A stretch of 64,000 nt of DNA from an uncultured Candidatus Saccharibacteria bacterium (GTDB taxonomy: Bacteria; Patescibacteriota; Minisyncoccia; Phycocordibacterales; XYD1-FULL-46-19): contig CAZEAY010000001.1 in the NCBI GenBank assembly GCA_964510655.1, positions 164,944 through 228,943 on the forward strand, in the 5' to 3' direction. Both the position numbers and the translations under genes were made by a program. Below are positions 3,838 to 58,495 of this stretch, one piece after another (the stretch's first letter is position 1; each line of letters starts with the position of its first letter). Under the pieces are notes generated by a model, which had not been told where the DNA came from, made no database searches, and worked only from the letters and a program-made list of their open reading frames with translations.

Positions 3838-4023
3838 ATGATCGATTCTGAAGAGAGGATGCGTATTCCCAAGGGCTTGCGCATTACCAAGACTCTTGGG
3901 GAACATCCTCAGCCAGCAGACGACGGTGTTCGTCTTGATGCTGTGGCTTTCCGAGAAGCTTCGAGGAGGAGAGTCGGGTGTTGTCATCCGACCAGATTCA
4001 TCGTTCTCCCTGATCGGAGCTGA
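3838..4023 (+). CDS. GC-rich ORFan mini-gene (61 aa) followed by its own terminator
   Basis: GGGAAGGAG SD 7 nt before ATG; local GC clearly above flanks; overlapping ORFs on both strands so a structured RNA cannot be excluded. Confidence 0.3.
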   Translation: MIDSEERMRIPKGLRITKTLGEHPQPADDGVRLDAVAFREASRRRVGCCHPTRFIVLPDRS

Positions 4024-4045
4024 CTCACTCCTGTGTCGAATTTTA

Positions 4046-4087
4046 CCCCACCCGTCGAAAGACAACGACGGGTGGGGATTTTGTTTG
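4046..4087 (+). terminator. intrinsic terminator
   Basis: ccccacccgtcg-aaagacaa-cgacgggtgggg hairpin then ATTTTGTTTG. Confidence 0.75.
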
Positions 4088-4183
4088 TAATTCAGGGTTA
4101 AATCTGGACCTATTTAGGTAGAAAAAAATTATTATAGATATACACAGTGGGACTTTGTTTTTTTGGGTGTTATAATTAAATCA

Positions 4184-5149
4184 ATGTCTCAAATTCGAGT
4201 TGGAATTGTCCGTGGTGGACCTAGTTCAGAATATGAAGTCTCTTTAAAAACAGGAGGCAGTGTTTTGGCTAATTTACCAACTCATTACCATAAAGAAGAT
4301 ATCTTAATTACGAAGGATGGTGTTTGGCATTTGCGTGGCGAACCGATTGCTCGACAAAATTTGCCTAATTATATCGACGTCGCCTTTCTGTGTCTTCATG
4401 GAGAATATGGAGAGGATGGTCAGGTTCAGCGAATTTTAGAAACCGTTGGTCTACCTTACACGGGGTCGGGGAGTTTGGCTTCGGCTTTAGGTATGAATAA
4501 GTTGCATACAAAAAAATATTTATCAGCCCATGGCATTAAAATGCCTCGTCATATTCACGTTGTGGCTGGTGACAATCCAATTGAAAAAACCCATGAAGTG
4601 TTTTTAAAGTTTGCTCCGCCTTACATTGTTAAACCGACCGACCGGGGTTCATCTGTCGGCTTGTTTGTTGTAAAAAGCGTCCATGATTTGCCTCAGGCTA
4701 TTTCTGCCTGTTTACAGATTTCAGATTCTGTCTTGGTGGAAGAATTTATTCGTGGTAGAGAGGCAACCTGTGGGGTGGTAGAAAAAATGCGTGGTCATGA
4801 TATTTATCCTCTTTATCCCACTGAGATTGTTCCTCCCCCTAAGCAAACCTATGATTATGATGCTAAATATAATTCGGTCGAGACAAAAATTGTTTGTCCT
4901 GGACGCTTTGCTCCAGAAGAAAAGCATCAGATTGCCAGGCTGGCGGTTTTAGCTCACGAAAAACTTGGACTTAGACATTATTCTCGTTCTGATTTTATCG
5001 TTTCTCCTCGAGGAATCTATTATCTGGAAACAAATACTCTTCCCGGTTTAACAGACCATTCCCTTGTTCCTAAGGCGGTCTCGGCGGCGGGAATCAATTA
5101 TGGCGATTTTTTAGATCACTTGATTAAGCTTGCTCTGGGTAAGATCTAA
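4184..5149 (+). CDS. ddl: D-alanine--D-alanine ligase
   Basis: IRVGIVRGGPSSEYEVSLKTG, CLHGEYGEDGQVQRILETVGLPYTGSGSLASALGMNKLHTK, ATP-grasp C-terminal half; ATG at 4184 preferred over the upstream TTG. Confidence 0.9.
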   Translation: MSQIRVGIVRGGPSSEYEVSLKTGGSVLANLPTHYHKEDILITKDGVWHLRGEPIARQNLPNYIDVAFLCLHGEYGEDGQVQRILETVGLPYTGSGSLASALGMNKLHTKKYLSAHGIKMPRHIHVVAGDNPIEKTHEVFLKFAPPYIVKPTDRGSSVGLFVVKSVHDLPQAISACLQISDSVLVEEFIRGREATCGVVEKMRGHDIYPLYPTEIVPPPKQTYDYDAKYNSVETKIVCPGRFAPEEKHQIARLAVLAHEKLGLRHYSRSDFIVSPRGIYYLETNTLPGLTDHSLVPKAVSAAGINYGDFLDHLIKLALGKI

Positions 5150-5206
5150 AATTGAGTTTTTTTATTACTTCTTGGATTTTAATTAGTCGACTGATATAAT
5201 GTCTTT

Positions 5207-5491
5207 ATGGAAGGCGTTTTAAAGTCGGATATTTTCTTTTTTATCACCTCACTCGTAGTAATTTTGATTGGGATTGGGTCAGTTATGGTTTTCTTTTATT
5301 TGGTTAATATTTTGCGTGACGTTAAAGATGTTTCGCGCACTGTCAAAGAGGAAACTAGGGGTATTGCCGAAGACCTTTCACAATTACGAACCAAAGTGAA
5401 AACTGGTGGCGTGGTGGTTGGGGTGCTGACTTTTTTCCGTCGCTTATTGTCACGCAGTAAAAAAGGTCGTAAACATAGTAAGGGTAATTAA
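5207..5491 (+). CDS. hypothetical small membrane protein
   Basis: one N-terminal TM helix, basic C-terminus. Confidence 0.4.
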   Translation: MEGVLKSDIFFFITSLVVILIGIGSVMVFFYLVNILRDVKDVSRTVKEETRGIAEDLSQLRTKVKTGGVVVGVLTFFRRLLSRSKKGRKHSKGN

Positions 5492-5516
5492 AAAAATAAT
5501 TTTAAATATAAATATT

Positions 5517-6042: not shown

Positions 6043-7530
6043 ATGACAGAAAGAAAAATTTTCTTACGGTTTTTGTTTTTTATTGCTATTTTTTTTATCA
6101 ACAGTGGTCGTGTTTTTGCATCTCCTAATATTTTTGATATTTCGCCGACTTCGGGTAGCCGAATCAATGGTTTTACTAGTCTTACCTTTTCTACCACTGA
6201 GCTGAACGATGTTGGTTGTCAGATTGATGGTTTAAACTGGGGCAGACCCTGTGGCGCATCAAATTTTACTTCTATCCCTGGTTGGGGCAATGTTGAGGAG
6301 GGTACCGTCACTTTATTGATTAGTGGTACCGACCAAGAAGGAAATTCTTTCTCTACTACTACGACCTATCTTAAAGACACCCTGTTGCCAATTATTAATC
6401 TAATTGGTTCCAGTGAAGAGTCTGTGGTGGTGGGTACCACCTACACTGACCCTGGAGTCACTGCCTCTAACGAATTTGGAGTGGATTTAACTGCTGATGT
6501 TGTGGTTGGTGGAGACATTGTCGATATTAACACTCTCGGAGATTATACTATTACTTATAATGTAGCTGATTCACTTGGTGATCAGGCACTTGAGGTTCGT
6601 CGGATTGTTCATATTATTCCTTTTGCTGTCACTGGTTTGTCTGACGATTTTATTCCGACCAAAAATAAAACCTGGAGTTGGTCAGCCAATAAAGCCGATT
6701 CCACTTTTCGATTTTCCTTAGACCAAGATGTTTCTGGTGTCATCGATGGAGAATATTCCAGTCTAACAGGAACTAGTACTGAAAATTTAGCTGATGGAAC
6801 TTATTATTTACATGTTCAAGCTAAAGATTTATCAGATAATGAGAGTTTAGTGACAACTGTTTCTGTCGTTATTGATAATACTCCTCCAGTTATTGATGTT
6901 CTTGGTTCTAATCCCCTGAACTTAGTTGTTGGTGAAAGCTTCACTGATCCTGGAGCCACTTCTACTGATTCAATTGACGGAAGTGTGATTACTACTTCTG
7001 CTGGCTCAGTTGATAGTAATACGGCTGGGACTTATACGATTACTTATTCCGCCACTGATCGGGCGGGTAATGATGCTAGTGGTAGTCGCACGATTGTTGT
7101 TAGTCCCGCTCCATCTCGCAGCGGAGGTGGTGGAGGAGGAGGGTCTAGTCGAGTTTCTACTTCTCAGGTAAATGTAGCTCCAACTAGCCCCGTTTCTTCT
7201 GGGATTGTGTTGGGCGCCTCCACTTTTAGATTTTTGAAAGACTTATCTTTTGGAATGAAAAATAATGATGTCAATGAGTTACAGTTACGCTTGATTAAAG
7301 AGGGATACCTAAAATCTTTGAACACTGGTTATTTTGGGTCGCAAACTTTATTGGCGGTCAAAACTTATCAAAAAAGACACCAATTGCCAGCAAGTGGGTT
7401 TTTTGGCCCAATGACTCGTGCTATGATAAATGGAGATAATCAGACTGAGCTCGATCAGACAAAAATAAATGCTCTCCTTGAGCAATTAAAATATTTTCAA
7501 ACTTTGTTAGATAAGATTAAAAATAAATAA
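6043..7530 (+). CDS. secreted surface protein: signal peptide, Ig-like repeats, Gly linker, C-terminal peptidoglycan-binding (PG_binding_1-like) domain
   Basis: signal peptide LFFIAIFFINSGRVFA; repeated ...TDPGVTA/TDPGATS Ig-like modules; GGGGGGGS linker; C-terminal VNELQLRLIKEGYL...GYFGSQTLLAVKTYQKRHQLPASGFFGPMTRAMI. Confidence 0.7.
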   Translation: MTERKIFLRFLFFIAIFFINSGRVFASPNIFDISPTSGSRINGFTSLTFSTTELNDVGCQIDGLNWGRPCGASNFTSIPGWGNVEEGTVTLLISGTDQEGNSFSTTTTYLKDTLLPIINLIGSSEESVVVGTTYTDPGVTASNEFGVDLTADVVVGGDIVDINTLGDYTITYNVADSLGDQALEVRRIVHIIPFAVTGLSDDFIPTKNKTWSWSANKADSTFRFSLDQDVSGVIDGEYSSLTGTSTENLADGTYYLHVQAKDLSDNESLVTTVSVVIDNTPPVIDVLGSNPLNLVVGESFTDPGATSTDSIDGSVITTSAGSVDSNTAGTYTITYSATDRAGNDASGSRTIVVSPAPSRSGGGGGGGSSRVSTSQVNVAPTSPVSSGIVLGASTFRFLKDLSFGMKNNDVNELQLRLIKEGYLKSLNTGYFGSQTLLAVKTYQKRHQLPASGFFGPMTRAMINGDNQTELDQTKINALLEQLKYFQTLLDKIKNK

Positions 7531-7531
7531 C

Positions 7532-8905
7532 ATGAAAATCACTAATATTTTCTCTCGGCTAGTGTTGTCGGCCTTCCTCTGCCTAATTGTTTTGGTGGCG
7601 GTAAAGGCTTCGGCCGAGACCGTCGTCATTATCAAAAATGTCAATTCTGTTAGTCGTCAAGTGGAGTTAACTAACATAGTTGAAACCGATGTAGACTTGT
7701 CTGGTTGGAAGCTTGATCAGCAAAATCTACCAGTTGGCGAGGCGAATCCTTTGATTAGTACCGATTTGTCTGGAACAATTTCTGCAATGAGTGACAGAAG
7801 TTTTGCGGTTGAGGGATTTGGTCCTGAGGGGGCTATCTTTTATCTTTATGATCAAGATAATAATCTGGTTATGAGTGCCACCCTGGCTTTGAATGAAGAA
7901 GTCCCAGTGATTTCTGGAGTTTCTCCTGTTTCAGGAAGTCGGGTGGGAAGTCTAACAACTTTAACTTTTTCCAGTAGTAAATTTAATGATCCCGGGTGTC
8001 AGGTGGATGGTTTAAACTGGGGTAGTCCTTGCCAAGGGTTGACCTTTATGGCGATTCCGGGTTGGGGCAATGTAGAAGAGGGACCATTTACCTTAACCAT
8101 TAGAGATACTAATTCTGTTGGGGTAGAAGGTAGACTAGATATTAGCTATATCAAGGATGTAACTCCACCAACTCTTGTTAGTGCTACAGCTATTGATGCT
8201 ACAACCATTAGCTTGAGCTTTAACGAATACCTAAAATCTCCTGTTTTGTCTTCAGATTTTATGGTTAGTGGTAATAGTGGTGATAATCCTGTTGTCTCGG
8301 CGACCGTTGTTGGTTCTGTTATTGTCTTAAAACTCCAAAACTCATTTTTAAGTACGGATAATATTTTATTAAACATTAATCCATTTAATCCAATTAGTAT
8401 TAAAGATACTGTTGGTAATGAGTTTATTCCAGTTGAAACAATTTCAGTGGTTAACAATATTCCTGTTGTTGTGACTTCTCCAGCGGGACAGGGAAATTCA
8501 TCTGGAGGGGGAGGAGGTAGCAGAACTACTGGTTATCTTAATTTAACTCTGGCTCCTGGCGGACAAGTTTTGGGTTTTGCCATCTTCCGCTTCAACAACA
8601 ACTTATCCCAAGGACAAAAACATCCCGATGTGATGGAGTTACAAAAACGTTTGATTAGAGAAGGCTTTATGGCTTCCGCTAGCACAACTGATTATTTTGG
8701 ACCAAAAACTTTAGCGGCCGTAAAGCTTTACCAGAAAAAAAATAAATTGCCAACCAACGGTTATGTTGGTCCAATGACTCGTTCAGTACTAAATGGTTGG
8801 TTTACAAAAAATCGTCCAGTGACTAATTTGGCCAATGTTAATCAGCAAGAATTAATTAGGTTACAAAACTTGCTAGAAATGTTGTTAAAGTTGATTAAAA
8901 AGTAG
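7532..8905 (+). CDS. secreted paralog: lamin-tail-domain (LTD)-like N-terminus, shared DGLNWG..PGWGNVEEG module, Ig-like region, C-terminal peptidoglycan-binding domain
   Basis: signal peptide; LTD-like VVIIKNVNSVSRQVELTNIVETDVDLSGWKLDQ; DGLNWGSPCQGLTFMAIPGWGNVEEG matches DGLNWGRPCGASNFTSIPGWGNVEEG of 6043..7530; C-terminus MELQKRLIREGF...YFGPKTLAAVKLYQKKNKLPTNGYVGPMTRSVL. Confidence 0.7.
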   Translation: MKITNIFSRLVLSAFLCLIVLVAVKASAETVVIIKNVNSVSRQVELTNIVETDVDLSGWKLDQQNLPVGEANPLISTDLSGTISAMSDRSFAVEGFGPEGAIFYLYDQDNNLVMSATLALNEEVPVISGVSPVSGSRVGSLTTLTFSSSKFNDPGCQVDGLNWGSPCQGLTFMAIPGWGNVEEGPFTLTIRDTNSVGVEGRLDISYIKDVTPPTLVSATAIDATTISLSFNEYLKSPVLSSDFMVSGNSGDNPVVSATVVGSVIVLKLQNSFLSTDNILLNINPFNPISIKDTVGNEFIPVETISVVNNIPVVVTSPAGQGNSSGGGGGSRTTGYLNLTLAPGGQVLGFAIFRFNNNLSQGQKHPDVMELQKRLIREGFMASASTTDYFGPKTLAAVKLYQKKNKLPTNGYVGPMTRSVLNGWFTKNRPVTNLANVNQQELIRLQNLLEMLLKLIKK

Positions 8906-8955
8906 ACATGTTTCCTGAATAAAATTTTATTCCTAACTGTTTTGACGAATAACCA

Positions 8956-10068
8956 TTGTCATTTATGGATCTACAAAAAAAGATAAGAAATTTTTTCATC
9001 CCAACTCTGCAGAACCAACTAAGTCCTTATTCCTTAAGATATAAGACCTTGGTCTTTGTAGCGGTCCTGGCGGTGGCGATTGAGTTGTTGTTCTATGCTT
9101 ACGTTAATACAGCCTTCAAGCAAAATCTTTTACTCGGTAATATTATTGACAGTATTCAAACGACAGTGGCCGATGTTTTGCCTCAAGTTATTGCTGATGA
9201 GACAAACAACAATCGTCTTGCCAACAATGAGCCGCCACTCAAAAATAATCTTTACCTAACGATGGCGGCTAGGCTGAAGGTGGATGATATGGTAAAGAAA
9301 GGGTATTTTTCTCATCAGGGGCCAGATGGGAGTATGGCTTGGAATTGGATGGATAAGGTTAATTATTCTTATTCCTATGCAGGAGAAAACTTAGCGGTGA
9401 ATTTTTTTGACGCTCGTGACGTGGTTAGTGCTTGGATGAAATCTCCCACCCATCGAGAAAATATTTTAAGTCCTCATTTTACTGAAGTGGGGATTGCGGC
9501 TGCCCGTGGTGTTTGGGAGGGTAAAGAGACCGTCTTTGTTGTCCAAATGTTTGGTGCGCCTCCTGCTCCTGATAATATTTCTACTGGCTTGGCTAAAAAT
9601 GCGACTCCGCCTAAGATTTATAAAAAACCAGCCGAGTCCTCTCCAGTTGCGGTTTCTACCTCTAGTGTTAGTACTTCAACGGCTGTTACTCATTTAGCTG
9701 TTGCTACCTCTACAGTTATGGCAACATCGGTAGTTAACGGTGCCATTATACCAGGCAAAAGTCTTACCACTGTTCAAAAATGGTTAGTATCACCTCGTCA
9801 CTTGGCGAGAGATGCTTATATCGTTTTAATGATTTATATGTCTTTAGTCCTATTGATTCCAATGTTTATGATTTATCACCGTCATGTATCGGCTAGTCAA
9901 TGGCTGAGGTTCAAAGAAATATTTATTTTGTTCCGTCGCCCAATCACCTCGGCTCTTGTTACCTTCATCTTCATTTCATTGGCAATGTACCTAAACTATG
10001 CCTGGGGTAAGGCTGGTTCCAGTGTCCATAATATGTTTATTGAGGTGGGGGTATCCAAACAAATATAA
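8956..10068 (+). CDS. CAP (SCP/PR-1, YkwD-like) domain protein with membrane anchors
   Basis: LYLTMAARLKVDDMVKKGYFSHQGPDGSMAWNWM...AGENLAVNF...AWMKSPTHRENILSPHFTEVGIAAA; hydrophobic N- and C-terminal segments. Confidence 0.75.
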   Translation: MSFMDLQKKIRNFFIPTLQNQLSPYSLRYKTLVFVAVLAVAIELLFYAYVNTAFKQNLLLGNIIDSIQTTVADVLPQVIADETNNNRLANNEPPLKNNLYLTMAARLKVDDMVKKGYFSHQGPDGSMAWNWMDKVNYSYSYAGENLAVNFFDARDVVSAWMKSPTHRENILSPHFTEVGIAAARGVWEGKETVFVVQMFGAPPAPDNISTGLAKNATPPKIYKKPAESSPVAVSTSSVSTSTAVTHLAVATSTVMATSVVNGAIIPGKSLTTVQKWLVSPRHLARDAYIVLMIYMSLVLLIPMFMIYHRHVSASQWLRFKEIFILFRRPITSALVTFIFISLAMYLNYAWGKAGSSVHNMFIEVGVSKQI

Positions 10069-10112
10069 TAGGAGTATTATATAAACAATGGTTAATTTAA
10101 AGTATCACTAAT

Positions 10113-10487
10113 ATGGCTAAAAAAATCTTAATTGTTGACGATGATCCAAATATTACCGATGTTTATTCGATGAAATTTGCGGCTGATGGATATACTGTCG
10201 AGGTGGCTCCTAATACTAAAGAAGGTGAGGGAAAGATTGCCGGGGGCTATATTCCTGATTTGATTTTGTTGGATATCATTATGCCGGGTGATAATGGAAT
10301 TCAACTATTAGAACGTTTAGTTAAAAATCCTGTTTTAGCTAATACTAAAATTGTCATTTTCTCTAACTTAGATCAGCGAGCGGATATCGATGAAGAGATT
10401 GTAAAGAAGATTGCCGGTTACTATCTAAAGGTAAATATGATTCCTTCTGATATGTCTAAGAAAATTGCCGAGGTCTTGGCTGATTAA
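10113..10487 (+). CDS. orphan single-domain response regulator
   Basis: KILIVDDDPNITDVYSMKFAADGYTV...LILLDIIMPGDNGIQLLERL...KIVIFSNL. Confidence 0.85.
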   Translation: MAKKILIVDDDPNITDVYSMKFAADGYTVEVAPNTKEGEGKIAGGYIPDLILLDIIMPGDNGIQLLERLVKNPVLANTKIVIFSNLDQRADIDEEIVKKIAGYYLKVNMIPSDMSKKIAEVLAD

Positions 10488-10538
10488 ATTAAATAAAAAA
10501 AAATATTTTAGAAAACTGAAATCTCTTATAAAAAGATA

Positions 10539-10573
10539 ACCCCCAGATTGCTCAGTGCCGTCTGGGGGTTTCA
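10539..10573. terminator. bidirectional hairpin between convergent genes
   Basis: aacccccaga-ttgctcagtgccg-tctgggggtt; T-run follows on the minus strand. Confidence 0.65.
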
Positions 10574-10575
10574 TA

Positions 10576-11229
10576 TTAGGACTCTTCATGGTCATGAAGC
10601 AGGGTTGATCTTTGGATTGCCCGTTGAATGGCGAGCCAAACTTCTTCCTTGCTGTCCTCGGAGTTTATCGAGTGGAAGTGTTGGGGTAGACGACCGCGCA
10701 GGTGGTCCAACATAGGTACGGTTTGAGTTTGATAGACTGCCCACCGTTTCTCCCATTTTTCGAGGGTGTCGTCTGAACGCCGCTCTTCTCCTTGTTTGCC
10801 TCGATTAAGGCACCTCATCTGTGAGGTCTCTTTCGAAATAACCAGAGAGAGAACGATTGGAGAAAGCATTCTTTCTCGATCAGAATACTCACAAATTCTC
10901 AATGCCTGAAGCACTGTTCGGGGACAGCCGTTTAGAATAACTGTTCCCTTGGTCTTTGCCACTTCATTGAAAACTTGCTCCAAAATGGTTTGGTCGGGTA
11001 TTAAGCCCCCACTGCTCGCTAATTGGACCAAGTCGGGTATGCGTCGACATATGTCGCCAGTTCCGATGTAGTGTGAGCCCTTGGTCCAACTCACCAACTT
11101 CTTCTTCCCATGCTCATCTTTCCCGGCGCCGGGACCACCCTCCAAAATGACGAAGCGGCGCCCAATATTAATTATTGGCGGCGCCTCCACGGTTATCGCT
11201 GTAAAAGATTGCAATATCCTCCACCTCAA
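10576..11229 (-). CDS. adenylate-kinase-family (NMP kinase-like) protein, GC-rich cassette, divergent P-loop
   Basis: RRFVILEGGPGAGKDE (P-loop with GKDE instead of GKGT), IGTGDICRR, GGLIPDQTIL, VILNGCPRT (like LLDGFPRT); no ATG at the 5' end (TTG or other start); GC visibly about 50%. Confidence 0.6.
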   Translation of the reverse strand: MRWRILQSFTAITVEAPPIINIGRRFVILEGGPGAGKDEHGKKKLVSWTKGSHYIGTGDICRRIPDLVQLASSGGLIPDQTILEQVFNEVAKTKGTVILNGCPRTVLQALRICEYSDRERMLSPIVLSLVISKETSQMRCLNRGKQGEERRSDDTLEKWEKRWAVYQTQTVPMLDHLRGRLPQHFHSINSEDSKEEVWLAIQRAIQRSTLLHDHEES

Positions 11230-11523
11230 CTTTCTGCAAAGATCGTGGGATATAAAATACGGTTATCACCGTATTAGTCCGTTCATTATTTTATCGTTTT
11301 TGAAAAAGTTGTCAAATTTTAATTAGTGAAAATATGGCTTAATGAAGGCGTATAATTAATAGTATGTGGTCACTAATAAAATAATTACCGTCTCTTGTCG
11401 TGGTCAGGAATATTTTACTCGCCGTCGCTCGTAAAATTTCACGAAGCCTCTCGGCACGATTTACTAATCGCCTGCCTCGTGGTTTTGTGTGCTCACAAAA
11501 CATCATTCCGGCTTCCACATATT

Positions 11524-11556
11524 AAAAAAATCCGAAGCAGTTCGGATTTTTTTAAT
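11524..11556 (-). terminator. terminator downstream of tRNA-Ala(UGC)
   Basis: tccgaa-gcag-ttcgga hairpin flanked by A7/T7 runs. Confidence 0.65.
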
Positions 11557-11559
11557 ATG

Positions 11560-11630
11560 TGGACCCTAGGAGAATCGGACTCCTATCTCCCGGATGCAAA
11601 CCGGGTGCTCTACCACTAAGCTAAGGGCCC
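11560..11630 (-). tRNA. tRNA-Ala (anticodon UGC)
   Basis: reverse complement GGGCCCTTAGCTTAGTGGTAGAGCACCCGGTTTGCATCCGGGAGATAGGAGTCCGATTCTCCTAGGGTCCA folds as a cloverleaf; G3:U70 Ala identity pair; 7-nt anticodon loop TTTGCAT; CCA not encoded. Confidence 0.85.
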
Positions 11631-11911
11631 CTAAAACATTTTTTACTAAAAATGTTCGGGCGATCATTTAAATTACTATTTAAATGATTTAGCCAAACAT
11701 TTCTCTGAATACTACCTTAAAATGACTCTAAAATCAAAGAAGAATATTATTTTTTCTTCTCATTATAATGCTCTTTTAAAAAGAGAAATGGAAACCAGAG
11801 TATAAATAGAATGCTTTCTAATTCGAATTTCATTATCTGAATTTAGCAGAGGTAATCTTAAGAAGCAAATTATTTTATAGGGTTTATTTTGCTTTATTGA
11901 TTATTTGAGTA

Positions 11912-11955
11912 AAATAAAGGCCCCTGATGATGTGTTATACCACCAAGGGCCTTCT
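11912..11955 (-). terminator. intrinsic terminator for the 11962..12390 cassette
   Basis: aaggccc...gggcctt stem followed on the minus strand by TTTATTTT. Confidence 0.5.
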
Positions 11956-11961
11956 GTGAAG

Positions 11962-12390
11962 TTAAATCATGGATCTGATTTGGATTATATGAGCAGATCT
12001 GCTCAGACGTCCATACCCACAATCAACTTCGATTTTGTCGCCGACTTCGATATGATCGAAAAGTTCCTTGTTGACTTTGGTGTAGATATCCACACTGTCA
12101 ATTTTGAAACCAATTCGATACGATTCTTTGCGGCGCATCGGAACGAGAACTTTTCCGGTGTGAAGATAGATTATGCCAGCAGGGGACACATGCTTATCTT
12201 CAACCACCGTAATGACGGTTCTCCCCCGGTCTATTCCAACAGTATCAACCAGATCGAAGGCGAATAGCGCCAAACCTCCAAGCAGTGCGAGTGTTAACAT
12301 CAGCACCGTTGCGGCTACAAATCGATCTAGTAGTGTCGAGTGGCGTGAAAAAACAGCAATCCAGAGATCATTCCACATGTCTTTAATCAT
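11962..12390 (-). CDS. GC-rich cassette: membrane-anchored hypothetical protein (143 aa)
   Basis: ATG (MIKDMWND) preceded by AAGGGAGGG SD; N-terminal TM helix then beta-rich domain; perfect sigma70 promoter upstream. Confidence 0.55.
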   Translation of the reverse strand: MIKDMWNDLWIAVFSRHSTLLDRFVAATVLMLTLALLGGLALFAFDLVDTVGIDRGRTVITVVEDKHVSPAGIIYLHTGKVLVPMRRKESYRIGFKIDSVDIYTKVNKELFDHIEVGDKIEVDCGYGRLSRSAHIIQIRSMI

Positions 12391-12446
12391 GGTCAGACCC
12401 TCCCTTGTTTCTTTCGGAGATAGTTTGTGAATTTTCACCTTTTTAG

Positions 12447-12475
12447 ATTATAGCAAATATTTCACTAATTGTCAA
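12447..12475 (-). promoter_or_regulatory. consensus sigma70 promoter TTGACA-17-TATAAT
   Basis: minus-strand tTTGACAattagtgaaatatttgcTATAATc, about 50 nt upstream of the SD/ATG of the 11962..12390 gene. Confidence 0.65.
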
Positions 12476-12706: not shown

Positions 12707-12740
12707 AATAGCAGCTATTACAGCTGCTATTTTTTACCAG
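12707..12740. terminator. bidirectional hairpin downstream of tRNA-Ala(GGC)
   Basis: aatagcagct-attac-agctgctatt flanked by A and T runs. Confidence 0.6.
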
Positions 12741-12811
12741 TGGACCTACCGGGAGTTGAACCCGGACCTGTTCCATGCCATGGAACCGTTCTACCGCTAT
12801 ACTATAGGCCC
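12741..12811 (-). tRNA. tRNA-Ala (anticodon GGC)
   Basis: reverse complement GGGCCTATAGTATAGCGGTAGAACGGTTCCATGGCATGGAACAGGTCCGGGTTCAACTCCCGGTAGGTCCA; G3:U70; T-stem CCGGG/CCCGG with loop TTCAACT; anticodon loop ATGGCAT. Confidence 0.8.
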
Positions 12812-12890
12812 TAAAAATAACAGTATTTACTATAACATATTTATTTAAATTTAAAAGTTTTTAGGGGATCTTTTCTTTTAACTTTTTTCT

Positions 12891-12934
12891 GTCCCAATAG
12901 TTTGGACGACCGTCCAAACTATTGGGACATTTTT
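12891..12934 (+). repeat. perfect 18-bp-arm palindrome plus T-run (terminator-like or operator-like)
   Basis: gtcccaatagtttggacg-ac-cgtccaaactattgggac then ATTTTT; no upstream plus-strand gene to terminate. Confidence 0.6.
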
Positions 12935-12980
12935 AATTAGTAATTTGATAAAGTGTCGTAAATTTGTTAAATTTAACACT

Positions 12981-13211
12981 ATGTTTAAAGAATTTTTAAT
13001 GAAAAAGATGTTGAAGGCTAAGGGGGTGCCAGAGGATCAAATTGATATGGTTATGACTTTGGTGGAAAAAAATCCCGCTTTGTTCACTAAAATATCCGAA
13101 GAAATCCAAGCTAAAATAAAAGGTGGTCAGGATCAGATGCAGGCTAGTATGGAAGTGATGTCTAAGTATAAAGATGAGGTACAGAAGATAATGGCTGAGA
13201 TAAAACAATAA
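12981..13211 (+). CDS. hypothetical small helical protein
   Basis: MFKEFLMKKMLKAKGVPEDQIDMVMTLVEKNPALF...; start ambiguous (12945, 12981 or 12999). Confidence 0.35.
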   Translation: MFKEFLMKKMLKAKGVPEDQIDMVMTLVEKNPALFTKISEEIQAKIKGGQDQMQASMEVMSKYKDEVQKIMAEIKQ

Positions 13212-13215
13212 TTCT

Positions 13216-14304
13216 ATGTCCTTAAGTATTGGCATTGTCGGGTTACCTAATGTCGGTAAATCCACCCTATTTAATGCGTTAACGCGCAAAAAAGTTCCGG
13301 CGGAGAATTATCCGTTTTGCACCATCGATCCATCGGTGGGTATTGTGGCTGTACCTGATGAACGAGTGGATATATTAAATGTTTTTTCTAAGTCGGCTAA
13401 GAAAATTCCCGCCGCCATTGAATTTGTGGATATTGCTGGTTTAGTCAAAGGAGCCGCCGAAGGCGAAGGTTTGGGTAACAAGTTTCTGTCTCATATTCGT
13501 GAGGTAGATGCTATCGCTGAAGTAGTTAGAATTTTCAAGGACGGAAATATTACTCATGTTTCCAATGAAGTAAATCCTATTGACGATATTGAGACTATCA
13601 ATCTGGAGCTTATCTTGGCTGACTTACAAACTGTTTCAAAACGTTTGGCTAATCTCTCTCATGACACTAAGAGGGGAGATAAAAAGGCAATGTTGGAAAG
13701 TGAATTTACTGCTCGTCTCCAAAAAGTTTTAGAGGAGGGAAAGATGGCTTCTACGATAAAAGATGAATTAACTGATGATGAAAAAATATATTTTCACAAT
13801 TTACATCTATTGTCCGGTAAGCCGATTTTATATGTATTGAATAAAAAAAGTGGAGCAGAACTGGTAGATACTGCACCCCTACTGAAATACTTAGCTGATT
13901 TAGGCGCCAATTACTGTTATGTTGATGCTCGAATTGAGCAGGAATTGTCTGATTTTGAAGGTGAAGAAAGAAAAATGTTTAAGGCTGAACTGGGGGCGAC
14001 CGATGATGATGGAATTGATAAATTGATCACAGAAAGCTATAAGATGCTCGATCTAATTACTTTTTTAACAACAGGAGAGGATGAAACGCGGGCTTGGACT
14101 ATTAAAAAAGGCTCGACGGCACCAGTAGCTGGGGGAGCGATTCATACAGATTTTACGGAAAAATTTATTAAAGCAGAAGTAGTTTTTTGGAAAGATTTAA
14201 TTGAAGCTGGATCGTATGGTTCGGCTCGTGAAAAAGGTTTGGTTCGAACAGAAGGAAAAGAATACATAGTTAAAGATGGGGACGTTATAGAGTTTAAGAT
14301 TTAA
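13216..14304 (+). CDS. ychF: ribosome-binding ATPase YchF (Obg-family GTPase)
   Basis: IGIVGLPNVGKSTLFNALT, NYPFCTIDPSVGIVAVPDERVD, DIAGLVKGAAEGEGLGNKFL, C-terminal TGS-like VIEFKI. Confidence 0.9.
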   Translation: MSLSIGIVGLPNVGKSTLFNALTRKKVPAENYPFCTIDPSVGIVAVPDERVDILNVFSKSAKKIPAAIEFVDIAGLVKGAAEGEGLGNKFLSHIREVDAIAEVVRIFKDGNITHVSNEVNPIDDIETINLELILADLQTVSKRLANLSHDTKRGDKKAMLESEFTARLQKVLEEGKMASTIKDELTDDEKIYFHNLHLLSGKPILYVLNKKSGAELVDTAPLLKYLADLGANYCYVDARIEQELSDFEGEERKMFKAELGATDDDGIDKLITESYKMLDLITFLTTGEDETRAWTIKKGSTAPVAGGAIHTDFTEKFIKAEVVFWKDLIEAGSYGSAREKGLVRTEGKEYIVKDGDVIEFKI

Positions 14305-14362
14305 ATTATTGACTTTTATCATATAAGTGATATAATTAAAAATAGATTGGAGTCAACTCACC

Positions 14363-14641
14363 ATGGATAAAAACTCGAAATGGATGGCTATTTCGGGAAT
14401 TACTGGACTATCATTCTTTTTGATCGCAAACTTTACGAATGTCTTCACGGGTTCAAGTGTTCTCGCGGGTTGTCTACAACTTTGTGTGAATGCATTTGTG
14501 TTCGTGACTTGGAAGAAATCATTCGTACAAAGTAGAGGGTTCAAAAAGTTTGTTGCATTCTTTGGAATTGTAGTGCCGTGTGTCATGGCAAGCATTACAA
14601 TCTGGAGAGTGCTGATTCCAGCCATTCTTCGTCTAGATTAA
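14363..14641 (+). CDS. hypothetical small membrane protein
   Basis: two or three hydrophobic helices; own terminator. Confidence 0.4.
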   Translation: MDKNSKWMAISGITGLSFFLIANFTNVFTGSSVLAGCLQLCVNAFVFVTWKKSFVQSRGFKKFVAFFGIVVPCVMASITIWRVLIPAILRLD

Positions 14642-14686
14642 CCCCGCAAAATCTCAAAGTAGATTTGTGGGGTTTTTGTTTTTTAG
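14642..14686 (+). terminator. intrinsic terminator
   Basis: ccccgcaaaatct / agatttgtgggg stem then TTTTTGTTTTTT. Confidence 0.75.
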
Positions 14687-14798
14687 TTTCTTATCTAAAA
14701 TTTTGACAAATAGTATTATGGATAGTGATTAATTCCAATATTTAAAAAAACAGACCCCTTTGCTGAAGCATTGGGGTCTGAAGAAGGTTCAGTGGTGG

Positions 14799-15437
14799 TC
14801 ATTTGGTGCCGAACACACGGTCTCCTGCATCTCCCAGACCAGGGAGAATGTAGGCCTGTTCGTTCAGTTTGCGATCAATGGTTGCAGCAATGATCTGAAC
14901 AGAGGGATAAGTGCTTTGAATCTCCTTGATTCCCTCAGGCGCTGCGATAATGCAGAGGAAGGTGATTTTTTTGCACCCCCATTCTGCTACTTGCGAGATC
15001 GCGCTCTTGGCTGAGCCGCCGGTAGCCAGCATGATGTCGAAAATCAGCGAGTGATGATTATCGAGCACCCGTTCGACTGTCGGTTGTGGATAGTAGCGTT
15101 GGGGTTGGTGTCCATTGGCATCATCACGGAACATGCCGAGATGATACACTGGGGATTCTGGGAAGAGGATTCTTGCTGGTGGAATCATTTCCATTCCCGC
15201 ACGCATGATTGGTATCAGGGCGATGTTTTCCGCTACCCGATACCCATCTGTCACCTCCAGAGGTGTTTCCACCTGTCCAGTTTGGATCTCGATATAGCGC
15301 AGAGCTTCGAAAAGTAACGGGACGCTGATTTCGCGGATCAGATGGGCAAAACGGTCAGAGGGCGTGTCTTTGTTTCGCAGTGCGGTCAGCATGAGTTGAA
15401 TTGCCCTGTGCCCAGAGAGATTAATCACGCGATTCAT
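14799..15437 (-). CDS. upp: uracil phosphoribosyltransferase (GC-rich relative to neighbours)
   Basis: FDIMLATGGSA (like DPMLATGGS), ILPGLGDAGDRVFGTK (like IPGLGDAGDKIFGTK), PIMRAGMEM; GGAAGGAG SD upstream. Confidence 0.9.
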   Translation of the reverse strand: MNRVINLSGHRAIQLMLTALRNKDTPSDRFAHLIREISVPLLFEALRYIEIQTGQVETPLEVTDGYRVAENIALIPIMRAGMEMIPPARILFPESPVYHLGMFRDDANGHQPQRYYPQPTVERVLDNHHSLIFDIMLATGGSAKSAISQVAEWGCKKITFLCIIAAPEGIKEIQSTYPSVQIIAATIDRKLNEQAYILPGLGDAGDRVFGTK

Positions 15438-15601
15438 TTTTCACGTGCTCCTTCCAAAAAATATAAAAACCTAAGTGGTTCCGTTTAAAACCCTAACATA
15501 TAAGGGTAAGGGTTTCCAGTTTCATAAATCAAAAAATGAAGAATCTTCCTTTTTCCCTTATTTAAGATTATTATATTTAGTATATTAGCTAATTTAATTA
15601 T

Positions 15602-16177
15602 ATGGACCAACTAGACGGCATTAAGCCACGAAAAAACTTCAATGTTTTGAAATGGCTTCTAATTATTAGTATTGTTATTGTTTTGAACCTGTTTTTTAAT
15701 TTTGCGATTATGTCGGTTTATCCGGCTCCTAAATATGAAGATTTTTGTAAAGCTGAACAGGTAAACGTTCAACCGGTCACTAAAGAAGCTTGTGTGGTCA
15801 TTGGTGGGCAGTGGAATGAATCATCTTCGGTGGAAAAAGTTGTTCCTGAAAGAGCCAGTGAACCACAAAAACTCCAAACCAATAGTTATTGTGATACCTC
15901 TTTTACTTGTCGGAAAAACTTTGAAGACGCTAATAATACTTATCAAAGAAATGTTTTTGTTGCCCTGATTGTCTTAGGTGTTATTTCTCTGATTGGCGGA
16001 TTTGTCTTGGCTTCTGTTTCTGTGGTTTCTCTTGGCCTCTCTTTTGGCGGTGTCTTATCCCTAGTAATTGCTTCAATGCGTTACTGGTCAGCGATGAATG
16101 AATATATTAGAGTGATCATTTTGGGAATTGCTCTGATTGTTCTGATCTGGATCGGCATGAAAAAATTTAAGGACTAG
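15602..16177 (+). CDS. hypothetical membrane protein
   Basis: N-terminal TM, Cys-containing extracytoplasmic region, C-terminal TM helices. Confidence 0.45.
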   Translation: MDQLDGIKPRKNFNVLKWLLIISIVIVLNLFFNFAIMSVYPAPKYEDFCKAEQVNVQPVTKEACVVIGGQWNESSSVEKVVPERASEPQKLQTNSYCDTSFTCRKNFEDANNTYQRNVFVALIVLGVISLIGGFVLASVSVVSLGLSFGGVLSLVIASMRYWSAMNEYIRVIILGIALIVLIWIGMKKFKD

Positions 16178-43740: not shown

Positions 43741-43746
43741 ATATAT

Positions 43747-46205: not shown

Positions 46206-46268
46206 ATGCTATCATTAGAATAGAGTCTTAAACAGACCAAGTATTGAAAATCTACAAGGAGGTGCGGG

Positions 46269-46880
46269 ATGAGTAATCTGCTTATCGCTCTCGCTATTAC
46301 TCTGATCATCTTCGTCCTGTTCCTCCTATCGAGGAATTGGCGGCGAGTCGTCCAGATCGTGGCCGGCTGGGGTCTCTATGGAGCCCTGAACTGGTTCTAT
46401 GACAATCCGTTCTGGTTGCTTATTCAGAACCATTTCGGAGTTGTCGTCGGTTCAGCCATGCTAACTGTTGGTGCATTCCTAATCAATTTCTGTGTCCTTC
46501 ATTGGTATCAGAAGAAGGGAGTGGACTGGCTCGGAGTAGGAGTTCTCGAAGAAATCAAGGAAAAAGGACATGCTTGGGCAGAAAAGCTTTGCAACCACAG
46601 TCAGTGGTATGTGAAGATTCCTGCCTACATTCCTGCCAAGTTCTTTCAAGTCCTCGTCTGGGGGCTGAAGAAGAATGATGTATTGGCCTTTGTATTTCTT
46701 TCAGTCACACAGGATTCCTTTATCACCACCGCTTTCCTTCGTCACGGACGATTTGGAAAGTTGAGTAGCTGGGATTATGTTATCTTCTCACTGAGCACTA
46801 TCGTGAGTTGCGTAGTGCACAGCGTGTGGATGGCCACTATCCTGAGCCTGATCAAGGCAATCCTGTTGAAGATGAGCTGA
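46269..46880 (+). CDS. GC-rich cassette: polytopic membrane protein (203 aa)
   Basis: five or six predicted TM helices; own promoter, SD and terminator. Confidence 0.5.
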   Translation: MSNLLIALAITLIIFVLFLLSRNWRRVVQIVAGWGLYGALNWFYDNPFWLLIQNHFGVVVGSAMLTVGAFLINFCVLHWYQKKGVDWLGVGVLEEIKEKGHAWAEKLCNHSQWYVKIPAYIPAKFFQVLVWGLKKNDVLAFVFLSVTQDSFITTAFLRHGRFGKLSSWDYVIFSLSTIVSCVVHSVWMATILSLIKAILLKMS

Positions 46881-46884
46881 GTAC

Positions 46885-46923
46885 GGGGTGGAGACGATGT
46901 GTCGTCTCCACCCCATTTTTTTA
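46885..46923 (+). terminator. intrinsic terminator
   Basis: ggggtggagacga-tgtg-tcgtctccacccc then ATTTTTTTA. Confidence 0.8.
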
Positions 46924-55167: not shown

Positions 55168-55698
55168 ATGATAAATCTTATGAAAAAAAAAGTATCAGAA
55201 ATAAAAAATGAATCAGATACTTCTTCGGACGTGAAAAAACAAATTTTTAGAAAAGGAGTTTCTGCTCTGATCTTAAATAAGAATCAGGAAGTTCTCTTGG
55301 TTAATCTCAGATCATTCGAGACTAAATTTTATGCTGTTCCGGGGGGAGGGATAGAAGCGGGTGAAACGTTAGACGATGCGGCTTACAGGGAAATCAAGGA
55401 GGAATTAGGTATTTCTAAAAAACTTCTTGAGTCAGTTGGTATGTCTACTAGTCCAATTAAGCTCTTATTTAAAACAGGGAAACTTAAAAGGGATGGGGTT
55501 GAATATGATGGCATGGAGAGATTCTTTTTTGGGTTTCACTTTTTAGGAAAAGATGACTACATAACCCTGCAATCCGATGAAATAAGAGGTTATAAATGGG
55601 TTACATTTAGTAACCTCAAAGATCATCTTCTTTTCGAAAATCAACTAGAGGATACTACTGAAAAATTACTAGAATTATTCCCCCATTTGAAGAGATGA
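55168..55698 (+). CDS. Nudix hydrolase
   Basis: Nudix box GGIEAGETLDDAAYREIKEELGI. Confidence 0.8.
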   Translation: MINLMKKKVSEIKNESDTSSDVKKQIFRKGVSALILNKNQEVLLVNLRSFETKFYAVPGGGIEAGETLDDAAYREIKEELGISKKLLESVGMSTSPIKLLFKTGKLKRDGVEYDGMERFFFGFHFLGKDDYITLQSDEIRGYKWVTFSNLKDHLLFENQLEDTTEKLLELFPHLKR

Positions 55699-56955: not shown

Positions 56956-57010
56956 GCAACTTAGTTCCATCTGAGACCAGCACTATGAAAAAAGTACAAT
57001 AAAACCAAGT

Positions 57011-57901
57011 ATGAAAAAATTCAATAAAATAGCTATTATTGATACAGTTAAAATTGCTGAGGAGGCAAAGGAGCAAATACAGCTTTACTCAAGTGAACCG
57101 GTTATTTATCCTGACCACGACACAAAAGATGAGAAGGAAATTTCTCAGAGAATTAATGACGCAGATGCTGCGTTGGGAAATTGGCATTCAAAAATAAATG
57201 CTTCAATCTTAAAACATACTCCAAATCTTAAATATATTGGAATTTGTGGAACAAGTTTAGCGAATATTGATCTTGAGGCGATAAGAAAACATAACATAGT
57301 TATCAAAAACGTCACAGATTATGGCGATCAAAGTACGGCTGAATATATTTTTGCGCAACTACTCAATCTCTTTAGGGGGTTCGGTAAACACATGTGGAGA
57401 ACCGAACCTAGTGAGCTTTACACAAAAACAATTGGAATCGTCGGTCTAGGAGCAACAGGGCAGCAAGTTGCCGGGATGGCTTTGGGATTTAAAATGAAAG
57501 TTTTATATTACAGTAAAACCAGAAAGGCGGAGTGGGAGAAGAAAGGAGTTCAATATTTTCCCATTGATGATTTACTAAGGAAGAGCGATATCATATCTAT
57601 GCACGTTCCTAAAAATACTAAGATTATTGGAAAAGATGAATTGGAAAAAATCGGTAATGGCAAAATTATAACCGATACTTGCTTAGGAAACATTTATAAA
57701 GATATTGATGCAGTCCGACTGTGGCTTGGAAATGAAAATAATTTTTTAATAAGAGATCATCATCCTGAAATAAAAGAAAAACTCGGTGATTTGAGTAGAT
57801 TTATATACACAGATGCAATAGCCGGAATAACAGCAGATACCCGAGAAAGGCTAGGTGCGAAGGTTATAGATAATATCAAAGCCTATCTAAAAGACAATTA
57901 A
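57011..57901 (+). CDS. D-isomer-specific 2-hydroxyacid dehydrogenase family (NAD-binding)
   Basis: TIGIVGLGATGQQVAGMALGFKMKVLYYSK (GxGxxG Rossmann), DIISMHVPKN. Confidence 0.75.
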   Translation: MKKFNKIAIIDTVKIAEEAKEQIQLYSSEPVIYPDHDTKDEKEISQRINDADAALGNWHSKINASILKHTPNLKYIGICGTSLANIDLEAIRKHNIVIKNVTDYGDQSTAEYIFAQLLNLFRGFGKHMWRTEPSELYTKTIGIVGLGATGQQVAGMALGFKMKVLYYSKTRKAEWEKKGVQYFPIDDLLRKSDIISMHVPKNTKIIGKDELEKIGNGKIITDTCLGNIYKDIDAVRLWLGNENNFLIRDHHPEIKEKLGDLSRFIYTDAIAGITADTRERLGAKVIDNIKAYLKDN

Positions 57902-57929
57902 CTCGTGCTGAAAGTGTGGGCCACAACTT

Positions 57930-57967
57930 AGAACTAAAAATACCCAAGCAAGAATCTGCTTGGGTAT
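57930..57967 (-). terminator. intrinsic terminator for the NDK-like gene
   Basis: acccaagcag-attc-ttgcttgggt then T-run on the minus strand. Confidence 0.6.
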
Positions 57968-58401
57968 CATAGCATGCGGAAGACCCCAACGTCTTTTTCC
58001 GCTTCCATCATGTTCCTAGATCGATGAATGATATTTTGATAATATCTGACACCATCGATCATAAGGGGTTTTCTCCCGCCGAATTTAAAGCGTATACTTT
58101 CGGGGGAGCAATCGACAGGATCAAGTTCTGTGCCTGTGATTCGAAGAAGCGTACTAATAGCGTTTTTCCCAACTACAAGCCCTGCTTCAACGAGTCCATC
58201 CACAAGAGGTTTGAAAATTGCATCTCTGTACCTCTCAGGCAGGTCAGAATAAATGATTTCCAATGCCCAACGTGGCATCTCAAGACTCTTGCTACCTGAG
58301 ATAGTTAGGCCACCAGCCTCGATCATTGCTCTGACTTCTTCACGAAATACCAAACCATGGGGCTTGATAATGTAAAAACTAGTTTCCAGAGTACTGTCCA
58401 T
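57967..58401 (-). CDS. nucleoside-diphosphate-kinase-like protein (divergent, GC-rich)
   Basis: YIIKPHGL (like IIKPDG), PLVDGLVEAGLVVG, NIIHRSRN (NDK active-site N..H.S pattern); AGGAG SD; consensus promoter upstream. Confidence 0.55.
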   Translation of the reverse strand: MDSTLETSFYIIKPHGLVFREEVRAMIEAGGLTISGSKSLEMPRWALEIIYSDLPERYRDAIFKPLVDGLVEAGLVVGKNAISTLLRITGTELDPVDCSPESIRFKFGGRKPLMIDGVRYYQNIIHRSRNMMEAEKDVGVFRML

Positions 58402-58466
58402 GAACCCAGCTCCTATTTAAAAAACTGAGTTGTGCTTGTTTTAAACACAAACTACATCCTTTCTTT

Positions 58467-58495
58467 TTTATATACCATATTTCACATATTGTCAA
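58467..58495 (-). promoter_or_regulatory. sigma70 promoter TTGACA-17-TATAAA for the NDK-like gene
   Basis: minus-strand TTGACAatatgtgaaatatggtaTATAAA. Confidence 0.55.

Follow-up and report, generated by a model that had tools for sequence, protein, structure and literature searches.

The stretch analysed here is a 64-kb window of contig CAZEAY010000001.1, in which 13 GC-rich open reading frames (ORFs), called cassettes below, lie scattered among the housekeeping genes of a bacterium of the candidate phyla radiation (CPR). Twelve of these loci had been singled out by eye in an earlier, sequence-only reading, and a thirteenth, ORF 81-383 on the minus strand, was added to them. A scan of GTDB genomes with YchF places the backbone in the Paceibacteria (Parcubacteria), the top match being 71% identical and Vogelbacteria and Taylorbacteria following at 64-66%. 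Nearer relatives include a locus recovered from a metagenome scan (L089, Ga0247840_10001181; DnaK 92.6% and ribosomal proteins 82-93% identical, 37% GC) and two loci of one sister lineage (L003 and L088; 82-85% nucleotide identity to the window). The whole window has a GC content of 38.1%, and it shares a value of 37-38% with L088 and L089, while L008 and L010 (YchF 71% and 66% identical) are at about 50-52% and a more distant Taylorbacteria locus, L036 (60%), is at 50%. As the nearest sampled relatives have about 50-52% GC, the lineage of the window seems to have shifted strongly towards AT. Against this background the cassettes are, in our judgement, probably horizontally acquired accessory genes, which would have reached a Paceibacteria genome as self-contained units bearing Shine-Dalgarno (SD) sites, from donors that use such sites.

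The compositional distinction of these genes was assessed on a non-overlapping ORF set, in which 13 cassettes were compared with 60 backbone ORFs. Mean GC was 0.489 in the former and 0.380 in the latter (Mann-Whitney p=1.9e-8), and the displacement extended to all three codon positions, with GC1/GC2/GC3 of 0.548/0.394/0.524 in cassettes against 0.470/0.342/0.329 in the backbone. For GC3, which ranged from 0.41 to 0.68 among cassettes, the separation was of similar significance (p=1.2e-8), with individual z-scores of 2.0 to 8.8. By the Muto-Osawa relations, such values at the three positions are what would be expected of genes shaped in a genome with a GC content near 50%. Trinucleotide usage correlated with the pooled backbone at only -0.18 to 0.66, compared with a mean of 0.845 for length-matched backbone sequence (p=2.8e-7), and the cassettes were more alike among themselves (mean r 0.58) than they were to the backbone. 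Thus the twelve loci of the sequence-only reading are outliers in whole-ORF GC, GC3, codon usage and trinucleotides alike; its estimate of about 50% GC for them agrees with the measured 44.4-53.2%, and its figure in the mid-30s for the surroundings was too low. Conserved backbone genes, too, contain short stretches in which GC peaks at about 0.47, so that the two classes are separated by whole-ORF statistics and not by GC as judged by eye. Altogether the cassettes account for 8.0% of the bases and about 17% of the ORFs of the window.

RNA genes were considered as a cause of the GC peaks and rejected: at Rfam gathering thresholds nothing but two tRNA-Ala genes was detected in the window. Scans by e-value of 3700-4180 and 38340-38700 gave nothing credible, and the GC-rich ORFs beside YchF in relatives likewise matched no Rfam family.

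Codon choice bears directly on whether the genes might be native, with a high GC content maintained either by selection, for very strong expression or for stable mRNA, or by a mutational bias that acts locally and is tied to their strong promoters. This account could draw on the observation that the cassettes have the strongest promoters, SD sites and terminators of the window, and on a slight enrichment of GC3 in ribosomal-protein genes and dnaK (0.32-0.41). The codons that distinguish the cassettes are, however, not those of this highly expressed set. The fractions in cassettes, backbone and ribosomal/DnaK genes, respectively, are 0.28, 0.08 and 0.06 for CTG; 0.06, 0.31 and 0.28 for TTA; 0.70, 0.21 and 0.35 for TTC; 0.51, 0.25 and 0.30 for AAG; and 0.22, 0.08 and 0.02 for AGC. 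CTG, AGC and G-ending codons, common in cassettes, are avoided in the ribosomal/DnaK set. Moreover, GC1, GC2 and amino-acid use are shifted as well (Lys content is halved, to 4.7% from 9.1% in the backbone), cassettes are missing at conserved junctions of relatives, and the apparently oldest of them, encoding a nucleoside diphosphate kinase (NDK)-like protein, is the least GC-rich, which points to decay rather than maintenance. We therefore regard a native origin as highly improbable.

Comparison of gene order, which the sequence-only reading had proposed as a check, showed that cassettes interrupt an arrangement conserved across about 30 Paceibacteria, and that their presence varies among relatives. 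The order b12945-YchF-b15602-LeuS-b19406-b20553-b21789-b22920-MnmA recurs in about 30 loci of this group. In L010, L021 and L029, b15602 directly neighbors YchF, with no upp unit at the junction, and in L010 a gap of 59 bp separates b22920 from MnmA. The first of these junctions holds, in the window, the upp unit together with ORF 14363, and the second the divergent khpA and c23972 units. Because the flanking genes are adjacent in relatives, the upp unit and the khpA/c23972 pair are identified as inserts. A further case is provided by L089, which retains infA through rpsI followed by alkD, b38684, grpE, dnaK and dnaJ: the whole c38395 segment is missing there, with both flanks aligning, and beyond dnaJ the gene set differs, L089 having GC-elevated ORFs of its own, with GGAGG SD sites and hairpin terminators. 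In the loci of about 60 relatives, no cassette homologue was found near YchF or GrpE other than NDK and a DUF397-like match of 26% identity in L089. Upstream of b12945-YchF, c11962 lies between tRNA-Ala(GGC) (12740-12811) and tRNA-Ala(UGC) (11559-11630), and the adk-like gene comes after the latter; the same UGC/GGC pair is syntenic in L009 (110-185 and 647-718), where its members are about 460 bp apart. The pair is in itself a conserved landmark, the spaces around it behaving as variable slots that are filled in the window by c11962 and adk.

The description of each locus as a single ORF wedged between housekeeping operons is mostly accurate. It does not extend to the khpA/c23972 pair, to the interleaving with tRNA genes, to a 5.5-kb variable region in which the DUF397, GRDP-like and c46269 units lie along with accessory genes of native GC, or to c81. 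The last belongs to a GC-rich zone (1-406) that also holds a second GC-rich, SD-led ORF (ggagaacaaATG), which comes after c81 on the minus strand, starts near position 40 and runs off the left edge of the window; this island accordingly has at least two genes.

Since the source is a metagenome-assembled genome and the changes of composition are sharp, foreign reads might in principle have been spliced into a Parcubacteria contig during assembly or binning. Independent per-run assemblies nevertheless reproduce four junction regions. Four Logan contigs from two runs (SRR14271372 and SRR14271365) match the window at 100% identity over 14740-18437, 12769-15634, 6576-11729 and 42724-45092, and collectively they span both sides of the upp and adk-like units, the junctions of DUF397 and the 5' part of the GRDP-like unit (L001 and L002 cross both upp junctions; L112 is the contig of 6576-11729 and L113 that of 42724-45092). 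The 3' junction of NDK is the same in three other samples, the shifts in GC coincide with ORF boundaries, and the flanks carry promoters and terminators that match. An artefact of this kind, for which the sequence-only reading had advised a check, can scarcely be credited.

The organization of the units (Table 1) is uniform. As had been asserted for most of them, nearly all cassettes have a strong sigma70-type promoter; three of the four sites cited as having 17-bp spacers are exact, and the fourth is at 46187-46215 rather than 46177-46205. Six sites in bases 1-60000 depart from the consensus at no more than one of its 12 positions, and five of these are directly upstream of cassettes (c11962, adk-like, c23972, DUF397 and c46269). 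The claim of GC-rich intrinsic terminators was likewise borne out: a strong hairpin of 8-16 bp with a T run occurs within about 25 nt of 12 of the 13 cassettes, c81 being the exception. The predicted minimum free energy (MFE) of the 3' 75 nt is -24.5 kcal/mol for cassettes and -11.0 for backbone genes (p=1.7e-5), and cassettes, with 8.0% of the bases of the window, supply eight of the 14 strongest hairpins of terminator type in bases 1-60000.

Table 1. Predicted cassette units of the window, with coordinates in window positions
Unit	Extent	Strand	Promoter	SD site	ORF and product	Terminator
c81	81-457	-	promoter-like site 457-429		81-383 (100 aa), membrane-like, no Pfam match
c3838	3764-4077	+	weak, 3764-3791	GGGAAGGAG	putative, 3838-4023 (61 aa)	hairpin 4046-4077
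adk-like	10530-11315	-	11315-11288 (TTGACA-16-TAAAAT)	GGAGG	10576-11214/11229	hairpin near 10570-10538
c11962	11916-12475	-	perfect, 12475-12447 (TTGACA-17-TATAAT with TG)	AGGGAGG	11962-12390	11954-11916
upp	14744-15489	-	promoter-like site 15489-15460	GGAAGGAG	14799-15437, uracil phosphoribosyltransferase	near 14780-14744
khpA	23488-23902	-	23902-23874 (TTGACA-17-TAATAT)	GAGAGGTG	23543-23809, KH-domain RNA-binding protein	23518-23488
c23972 (divergent from khpA)	23923-24304	+	23923-23951 (TTGACC-17-TATAAT)	none upstream	23972-24265 (97 aa)	24271-24304
c28592	28544-28983	+	TATAAT 42 nt before start	weak (GGGGTG)	28592-28933 (113 aa)	near 28957-28983
c38395	38395-38642	+		GGAGG	probable start at internal ATG 38440 (50 aa), stop 38592	38610-38642
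DUF397	43338-43735	+	43338-43367 (TTGACA-18-TAAAAT)	AAGGTGA	43436-43687 (83 aa)	43700-43735
GRDP-like (formerly DUF1399)	44546-45190	+	44546-44574 (TTGACA-17-TACTAT)	AAGGTGAGGG	44626-45135 (169 aa)	near 45149-45185
c46269	46187-46914	+	46187-46215 (TTGACA-17-TATCAT with TG)	AGGAGGTG	46269-46880 (203 aa), membrane protein	46885-46914
NDK-like	57939-58495	-	58495-58467 (TTGACA-17-TATAAA)	AGGAG	57967-58401 (144 aa)	57968-57939

The sixth of the top promoter sites (14309-14336, 11 of 12 positions, with an extended -10) precedes a small inserted ORF at 14363-14641, which encodes 92 aa at a GC of 0.40. This ORF is missing at the YchF-b15602 junction in L010, L021 and L029. Possibly it was inserted earlier than the cassettes and has by now taken on the composition of its host.

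The most discriminating feature is the SD site, scored as a crude match of at least 4 nt in the 20 nt upstream of each start codon. Strong sites of the GGAGG type had been noted on most cassettes, and by this measure 11 of the 13 have one, in forms such as GGAGG, AAGGAG and AGGAGGTG, compared with 3 of 48 backbone genes (Fisher p=6e-8); with the internal ATG 38440 taken as the start of c38395, the count for cassettes rises to 12. No SD-like motif of any kind was present in 38 of the 48 backbone genes. Upstream regions were also inspected directly for genes in which conservation of the N-terminus secures the start codon (dnaK, ychF, leuS, alaS, mnmA, rpoA, rpsM/K/D/I, rplQ/M, infA and ftsZ), and these proved to be A/T-rich and devoid of SD sites. 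The two classes differ correspondingly in predicted MFE from -30 to +30 around the start, which is -4.4 kcal/mol for the backbone and -10.4 for cassettes (p=3e-7). The scarcity of SD sites is evidently a property of the wider group, as the same measure gave frequencies of 0-29% in about 45 Paceibacteria loci, those of about 50% GC included, while most low-GC loci of Firmicutes type (Clostridia, Clostridiales, Christensenella, Herbivorax) gave 46-67%, with a range of 0.33-0.67. It is also in keeping with a survey in which an anti-SD motif was detected in just 48% of Parcubacteria, and whose authors proposed that part of the group forms no SD helix (PMC9297842).

These observations contradict one element of the sequence-only reading, in which each acquired gene was supposed to have received expression signals of the recipient. 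Here the SD site is no native signal, and since both the backbone and related Paceibacteria lack it, the cassettes look like complete units imported from SD-using donors, their signals probably having arrived with the genes.

Among native starts without SD sites (for example those at 499, 5207, 37644, 42244, 48189 and 59779 on the minus strand), several are preceded by a -10-like hexamer whose end lies only 4-8 nt from the ATG, as though some operons began with a leaderless mRNA. Leaderless transcription of native genes was nevertheless not adopted, as the distances from -10 to ATG showed no clear peak.

NDK offers the only view of a cassette over evolutionary time, as it alone has an orthologue, which occupies the corresponding 3' junction in L003/L088, the sister lineage. 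For NDK, dS is 0.47 and thus within the range of flanking genes (0.40-0.91), which argues that it was present before the two lineages split, and its dN/dS of 0.105 indicates a functional gene under purifying selection. The stem of its terminator shows a compensatory change between the lineages. The promoter and 5' untranslated region (UTR) can no longer be aligned, and the SD site is kept in both. NDK also has the lowest GC3 of the cassettes (0.407) and the signature most like that of the backbone (r=0.66), which fits an older acquisition drifting slowly to host composition; the other cassettes would then be younger. Directly upstream of NDK, L003 has an IS481-family transposase gene (1175-2047; rve domain, GC 0.455) that is missing in L088 and in the window, and the NDK start codon is the very point at which collinearity with the window ends.

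The retention of the SD site in both lineages, despite 5' UTRs that cannot be aligned, lends support to a more far-reaching idea, which we advance tentatively and consider rather less likely than not: that two regimes of initiation coexist, the native genes being SD-independent and the imported set SD-dependent, with the site under selection. Apart from this idea, and as part of our principal reading, native genes start translation without an SD site on unstructured, A/U-rich leaders, and foreign genes, with 5' ends that are more structured and GC-rich, keep theirs; the site would aid their translation in a cell whose own mRNAs rely on the lack of structure. SD-poor initiation is a property of the Bacteroidota as well.

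The source of the cassettes was sought at several levels. Among 5.8 billion clusters, the best homologues were only 34-50% identical. Upp had its best non-self matches at 46-48% identity, under names from Clostridia, Chloroflexota and Ignavibacteriales, and two of these that were looked up had ordinary non-CPR contexts. The best homologue of the adk-like product was a cyanobacterial Adk (34% identical), and a single partial homologue was found for DUF397. The GRDP-like product matched mainly proteobacterial plasmid genes, at 36-49% identity (Azospirillum, Variovorax, Cupriavidus, Halomonas and Pseudomonas); for DUF397 no plasmid match was found. Codon usage was uninformative in this regard, as the relative synonymous codon usage of cassettes correlated at no more than 0.39 with that of any of the 80 fetched genomes. 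At rates of change like those of NDK, a fall below 50% identity after transfer is incompatible with a GC3 still above 0.5, and the donors are accordingly placed in divergent, unsampled lineages. They would be expected to have had roughly 50% GC and SD-dependent initiation. Close relatives within the Paceibacteria are unlikely donors, as the donors would have used SD sites and Paceibacteria are SD-poor even at 50% GC.

It had been proposed instead that the genes came from a high-GC actinobacterial host on which this organism lives as an episymbiont, and were then provided with the promoter, SD site and terminator of the recipient. DUF397 is a family dominated by actinobacteria, the sole phage match obtained for that cassette is to an actinophage (Saccharomonospora phage PIS 136, 45% identity over 53 residues), and six Streptomyces plasmids give weak matches to the GRDP-like gene. 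The phage match, a weak tie, reflects membership of a family and is not a signal of transfer. More decisively, the backbone is that of Paceibacteria and not Saccharibacteria; the GC (44-53%) and GC3 of the cassettes are far below those of actinobacteria, in which GC3 exceeds about 0.85; the best matches of Upp, the adk-like and the GRDP-like products are distant and not actinobacterial; and the SD site is native neither to this genome nor to its relatives. An actinobacterial origin thus has very little to recommend it, and the inference of an actinobacterial host, attractive but unsupported, is removed.

Phage morons are autonomous promoter-gene-terminator modules of deviant GC situated between prophage genes, and the cassettes resemble them in being single-gene units with their own promoter and intrinsic terminator and a deviant composition. 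They could therefore represent moron-like cargo left by decayed phages, plasmids or integrative elements, their format being that of the mobile-element gene pool. Several features might be cited to this effect: the adk-like and c11962 units adjoin tRNA-Ala genes; an IS481-family transposase abuts NDK, in L003 only; relatives of the GRDP-like gene are plasmid-borne; and Upp and DUF397 match PHROG families, albeit generic ones and the only such families matched. On the other hand, the units lie amid housekeeping genes (ychF, leuS, mnmA, ftsA, dnaJ) and are scattered singly rather than clustered. No phage structural or integration gene was seen among the neighbors examined, and selected backbone genes scanned with Pfam, short of a full scan, included no integrase, capsid, terminase or conjugation gene. 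No flanking repeats occur, IMG/VR scans with c46269, the GRDP-like gene and NDK gave no close viral relative, and GenBank phages gave nothing for c11962 and c28592 and weak matches (26-31% identity) for the adk-like product. Derivation from such remnants is consequently judged unlikely, if less so than the actinobacterial account.

Integron cassettes invite a similar comparison, as they too are mostly single-ORF units of diverse and often unknown function. They are, however, promoterless, bear attC sites and are arrayed by an integrase at attI, whereas the units of the window have their own promoters and no shared repeat, are dispersed over 58 kb, and are accompanied by no integrase among the genes examined.

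The products of the cassettes are largely as first proposed: the assignments to Upp, Adk-like, NDK-like, KhpA-like, DUF397-like and DUF1399-like proteins were all recovered with Pfam. Upp (GC 0.515, GC3 0.545) scores 196.9 bits with UPRTase (PF14681; cut-off 27) and 203.7 with NF001097 (cut-off 114), and falls short of the cut-off of TIGR01091 (188.4 against 208.35). The adk-like product (GC 0.495, GC3 0.528) matches ADK (PF00406) at 45.8 bits, over a cut-off of 26.8, and NCBIfam adenylate-kinase equivalogs at 66 bits, far under their cut-off of 154. Its alignment to PDB 3cm0 extends across the PGAGK, TGDI.R, G.PRT and RSDD motifs, and it is read from these as a kinase of Adk fold that presumably acts on nucleoside monophosphates. 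The NDK-like product matches NDK (PF00334) at 44.7 bits (cut-off 27) and the NCBIfam model at 38 (cut-off 155), and in its NxxH motif, which has the catalytic His, NIIH aligns with NVIH of PDB 3vvt. KhpA scores 58.4 bits with KH_KhpA-B (GC 0.479; its terminator stem of 14 pairs includes 10 G-C pairs), and DUF397 scores 31.0 against a cut-off of 24. The GRDP-like assignment is borderline in Pfam (23.0 bits, cut-off 22.7) and is backed by the tblastn matches noted above, one of which is annotated as a glycine-rich domain-containing protein-like.

The remainder had been called ORFans, and this is apt for six of them: c81, c3838, c11962, c23972, c28592 and c38395 match no family in Pfam, PHROG or NCBIfam. 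It does not apply to c46269 (GC3 0.583), which has no Pfam match and belongs to an uncharacterized family of 170 representatives, mostly of about 200 aa, the best of which is 50% identical over its full length. Of the six, c81 has a GC of 0.498 and GC3 of 0.604; c3838 a GC of 0.532, with a terminator of 12 pairs, 10 of them G-C, and no credible Rfam match; c28592 a GC of 0.491 and GC3 of 0.518; and c38395 a GC of 0.51 and GC3 of 0.68, with a terminator of 15 pairs and, again, no Rfam match. The product of c11962 (142 aa) has an N-terminal hydrophobic stretch.

Some features of the backbone are recorded for their own sake. An intergenic repeat of about 125-140 bp with ACGAAT/ATTCGT motifs occurs in two copies, 75-94% identical, one right after rpoA (34682-34806) and the other right after dnaK (42104-42243), and could be an element resembling repetitive extragenic palindromes or miniature inverted-repeat transposable elements, or a shared regulatory or terminator structure. 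LeuS (16371-19241, 956 aa) has a Pfam NUDIX match between the two halves of its tRNA-synt_1 domain, and the LeuS of relatives aligns to it in at least two blocks, which suggests a lineage-specific insert or a split gene. Several other genes with NUDIX domains are present in the window (36030-37598 and 55168-55698) and in L003 and L088; the first of these encodes a 522-aa protein and is of native composition, yet is not found in L089.

Overall, composition, codon usage, synteny, absence from L089 and independent assemblies agree with the central proposition of the sequence-only reading, that genes were acquired repeatedly, and mostly singly, from a source with more GC than the recipient. As we envisage it, uptake would have occurred in many separate events, generally of one gene each, and each unit would be monocistronic, comprising a sigma70 promoter, a 5' UTR with an SD site, the coding sequence and an intrinsic terminator. 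Landing sites would be variable intergenic slots between conserved operons and beside tRNA-Ala genes, and insertion would be followed by purifying selection and slow drift to host composition, with NDK the oldest and most drifted of the set. Possibly, only those foreign fragments that have a complete and generic expression unit become established.

Several points weigh against this interpretation. No donor was found at the depth of search described, and the ends of cassettes show neither a shared repeat family nor a target duplication; nor was an integrase encountered among the selected backbone genes scanned with Pfam, which is less than a full scan. Promoters and terminators of like type also occur at native operons, so that the SD site is the only signal that discriminates, and this might be a product of selection within the recipient rather than an import. 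The association is weaker in other AT-rich Paceibacteria, where 5 of 22 GC outliers have an SD site compared with 28 of 441 other genes (p=0.015). A 16S rRNA gene, and with it the anti-SD sequence, is absent from the window and from all fetched loci. For c3838, c38395 and c23972, coding is putative and is argued from the ORF, the signals and codon-position GC. Finally, 83% of the single-gene transfers detected into Patescibacteria came from other Patescibacteria (PMC12455944), with which a donor outside the Paceibacteria fits poorly unless it belonged to SD-using classes of CPR; such classes are possible donors and would accord with that figure.

Horizontal gene transfer (HGT) in Patescibacteria is in itself well documented. 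Genes transferred one by one, and islands, have been described that make up as much as 13% of genome length (PMC12455944, mSystems 2025), and the cassettes resemble these in their share of the sequence (8%), their location in variable slots and the frequent failure to recover donors. They differ in that the SD sites and the distant, non-CPR matches argue against close Paceibacteria as donors, whereas transfers within the Patescibacteria predominate there, and neither a uniform promoter-SD-CDS-terminator format (CDS, coding sequence) nor a contrast in SD sites with native genes was encountered in that report. Similarly, the SD-poor Parcubacteria (PMC9297842, RNA 2022), of which one subgroup is reported to lack the anti-SD motif, have in common with the window native genes without SD sites and with unstructured, A/U-rich starts; the window differs in having a minority SD-led class that coincides with foreign composition. 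It is this near-perfect coincidence that is worth recording. GC outliers are rarer in other AT-rich Paceibacteria loci, and for this reason a density as high as that of the window (13 per 64 kb) may be peculiar to its lineage and close kin.

Members of the CPR have minimal genomes and depend on other cells, and how they gain functions is thus a central question; the window is a clean example of gain via many single-gene imports. Some of these would plausibly be of metabolic benefit, as Upp together with the Adk-like and NDK-like kinases would add steps of uracil and nucleotide salvage. Imported and native genes of this SD-poor Parcubacterium can be told apart by their SD sites almost as well as by composition, and the SD site constitutes a second, independent marker of HGT. 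Should two regimes of initiation indeed coexist, the anti-SD sequence would be retained mainly for foreign genes, the SD motif would be a simple sequence marker by which mobile genes of SD-poor CPR could be recognized, and it would possibly act as a filter on which foreign genes establish; if, conversely, the 16S rRNA has no anti-SD sequence, structured, SD-bearing foreign mRNAs would be translated by some other route. SD-led imports provide a natural test of whether ribosomes of this kind still use SD pairing.

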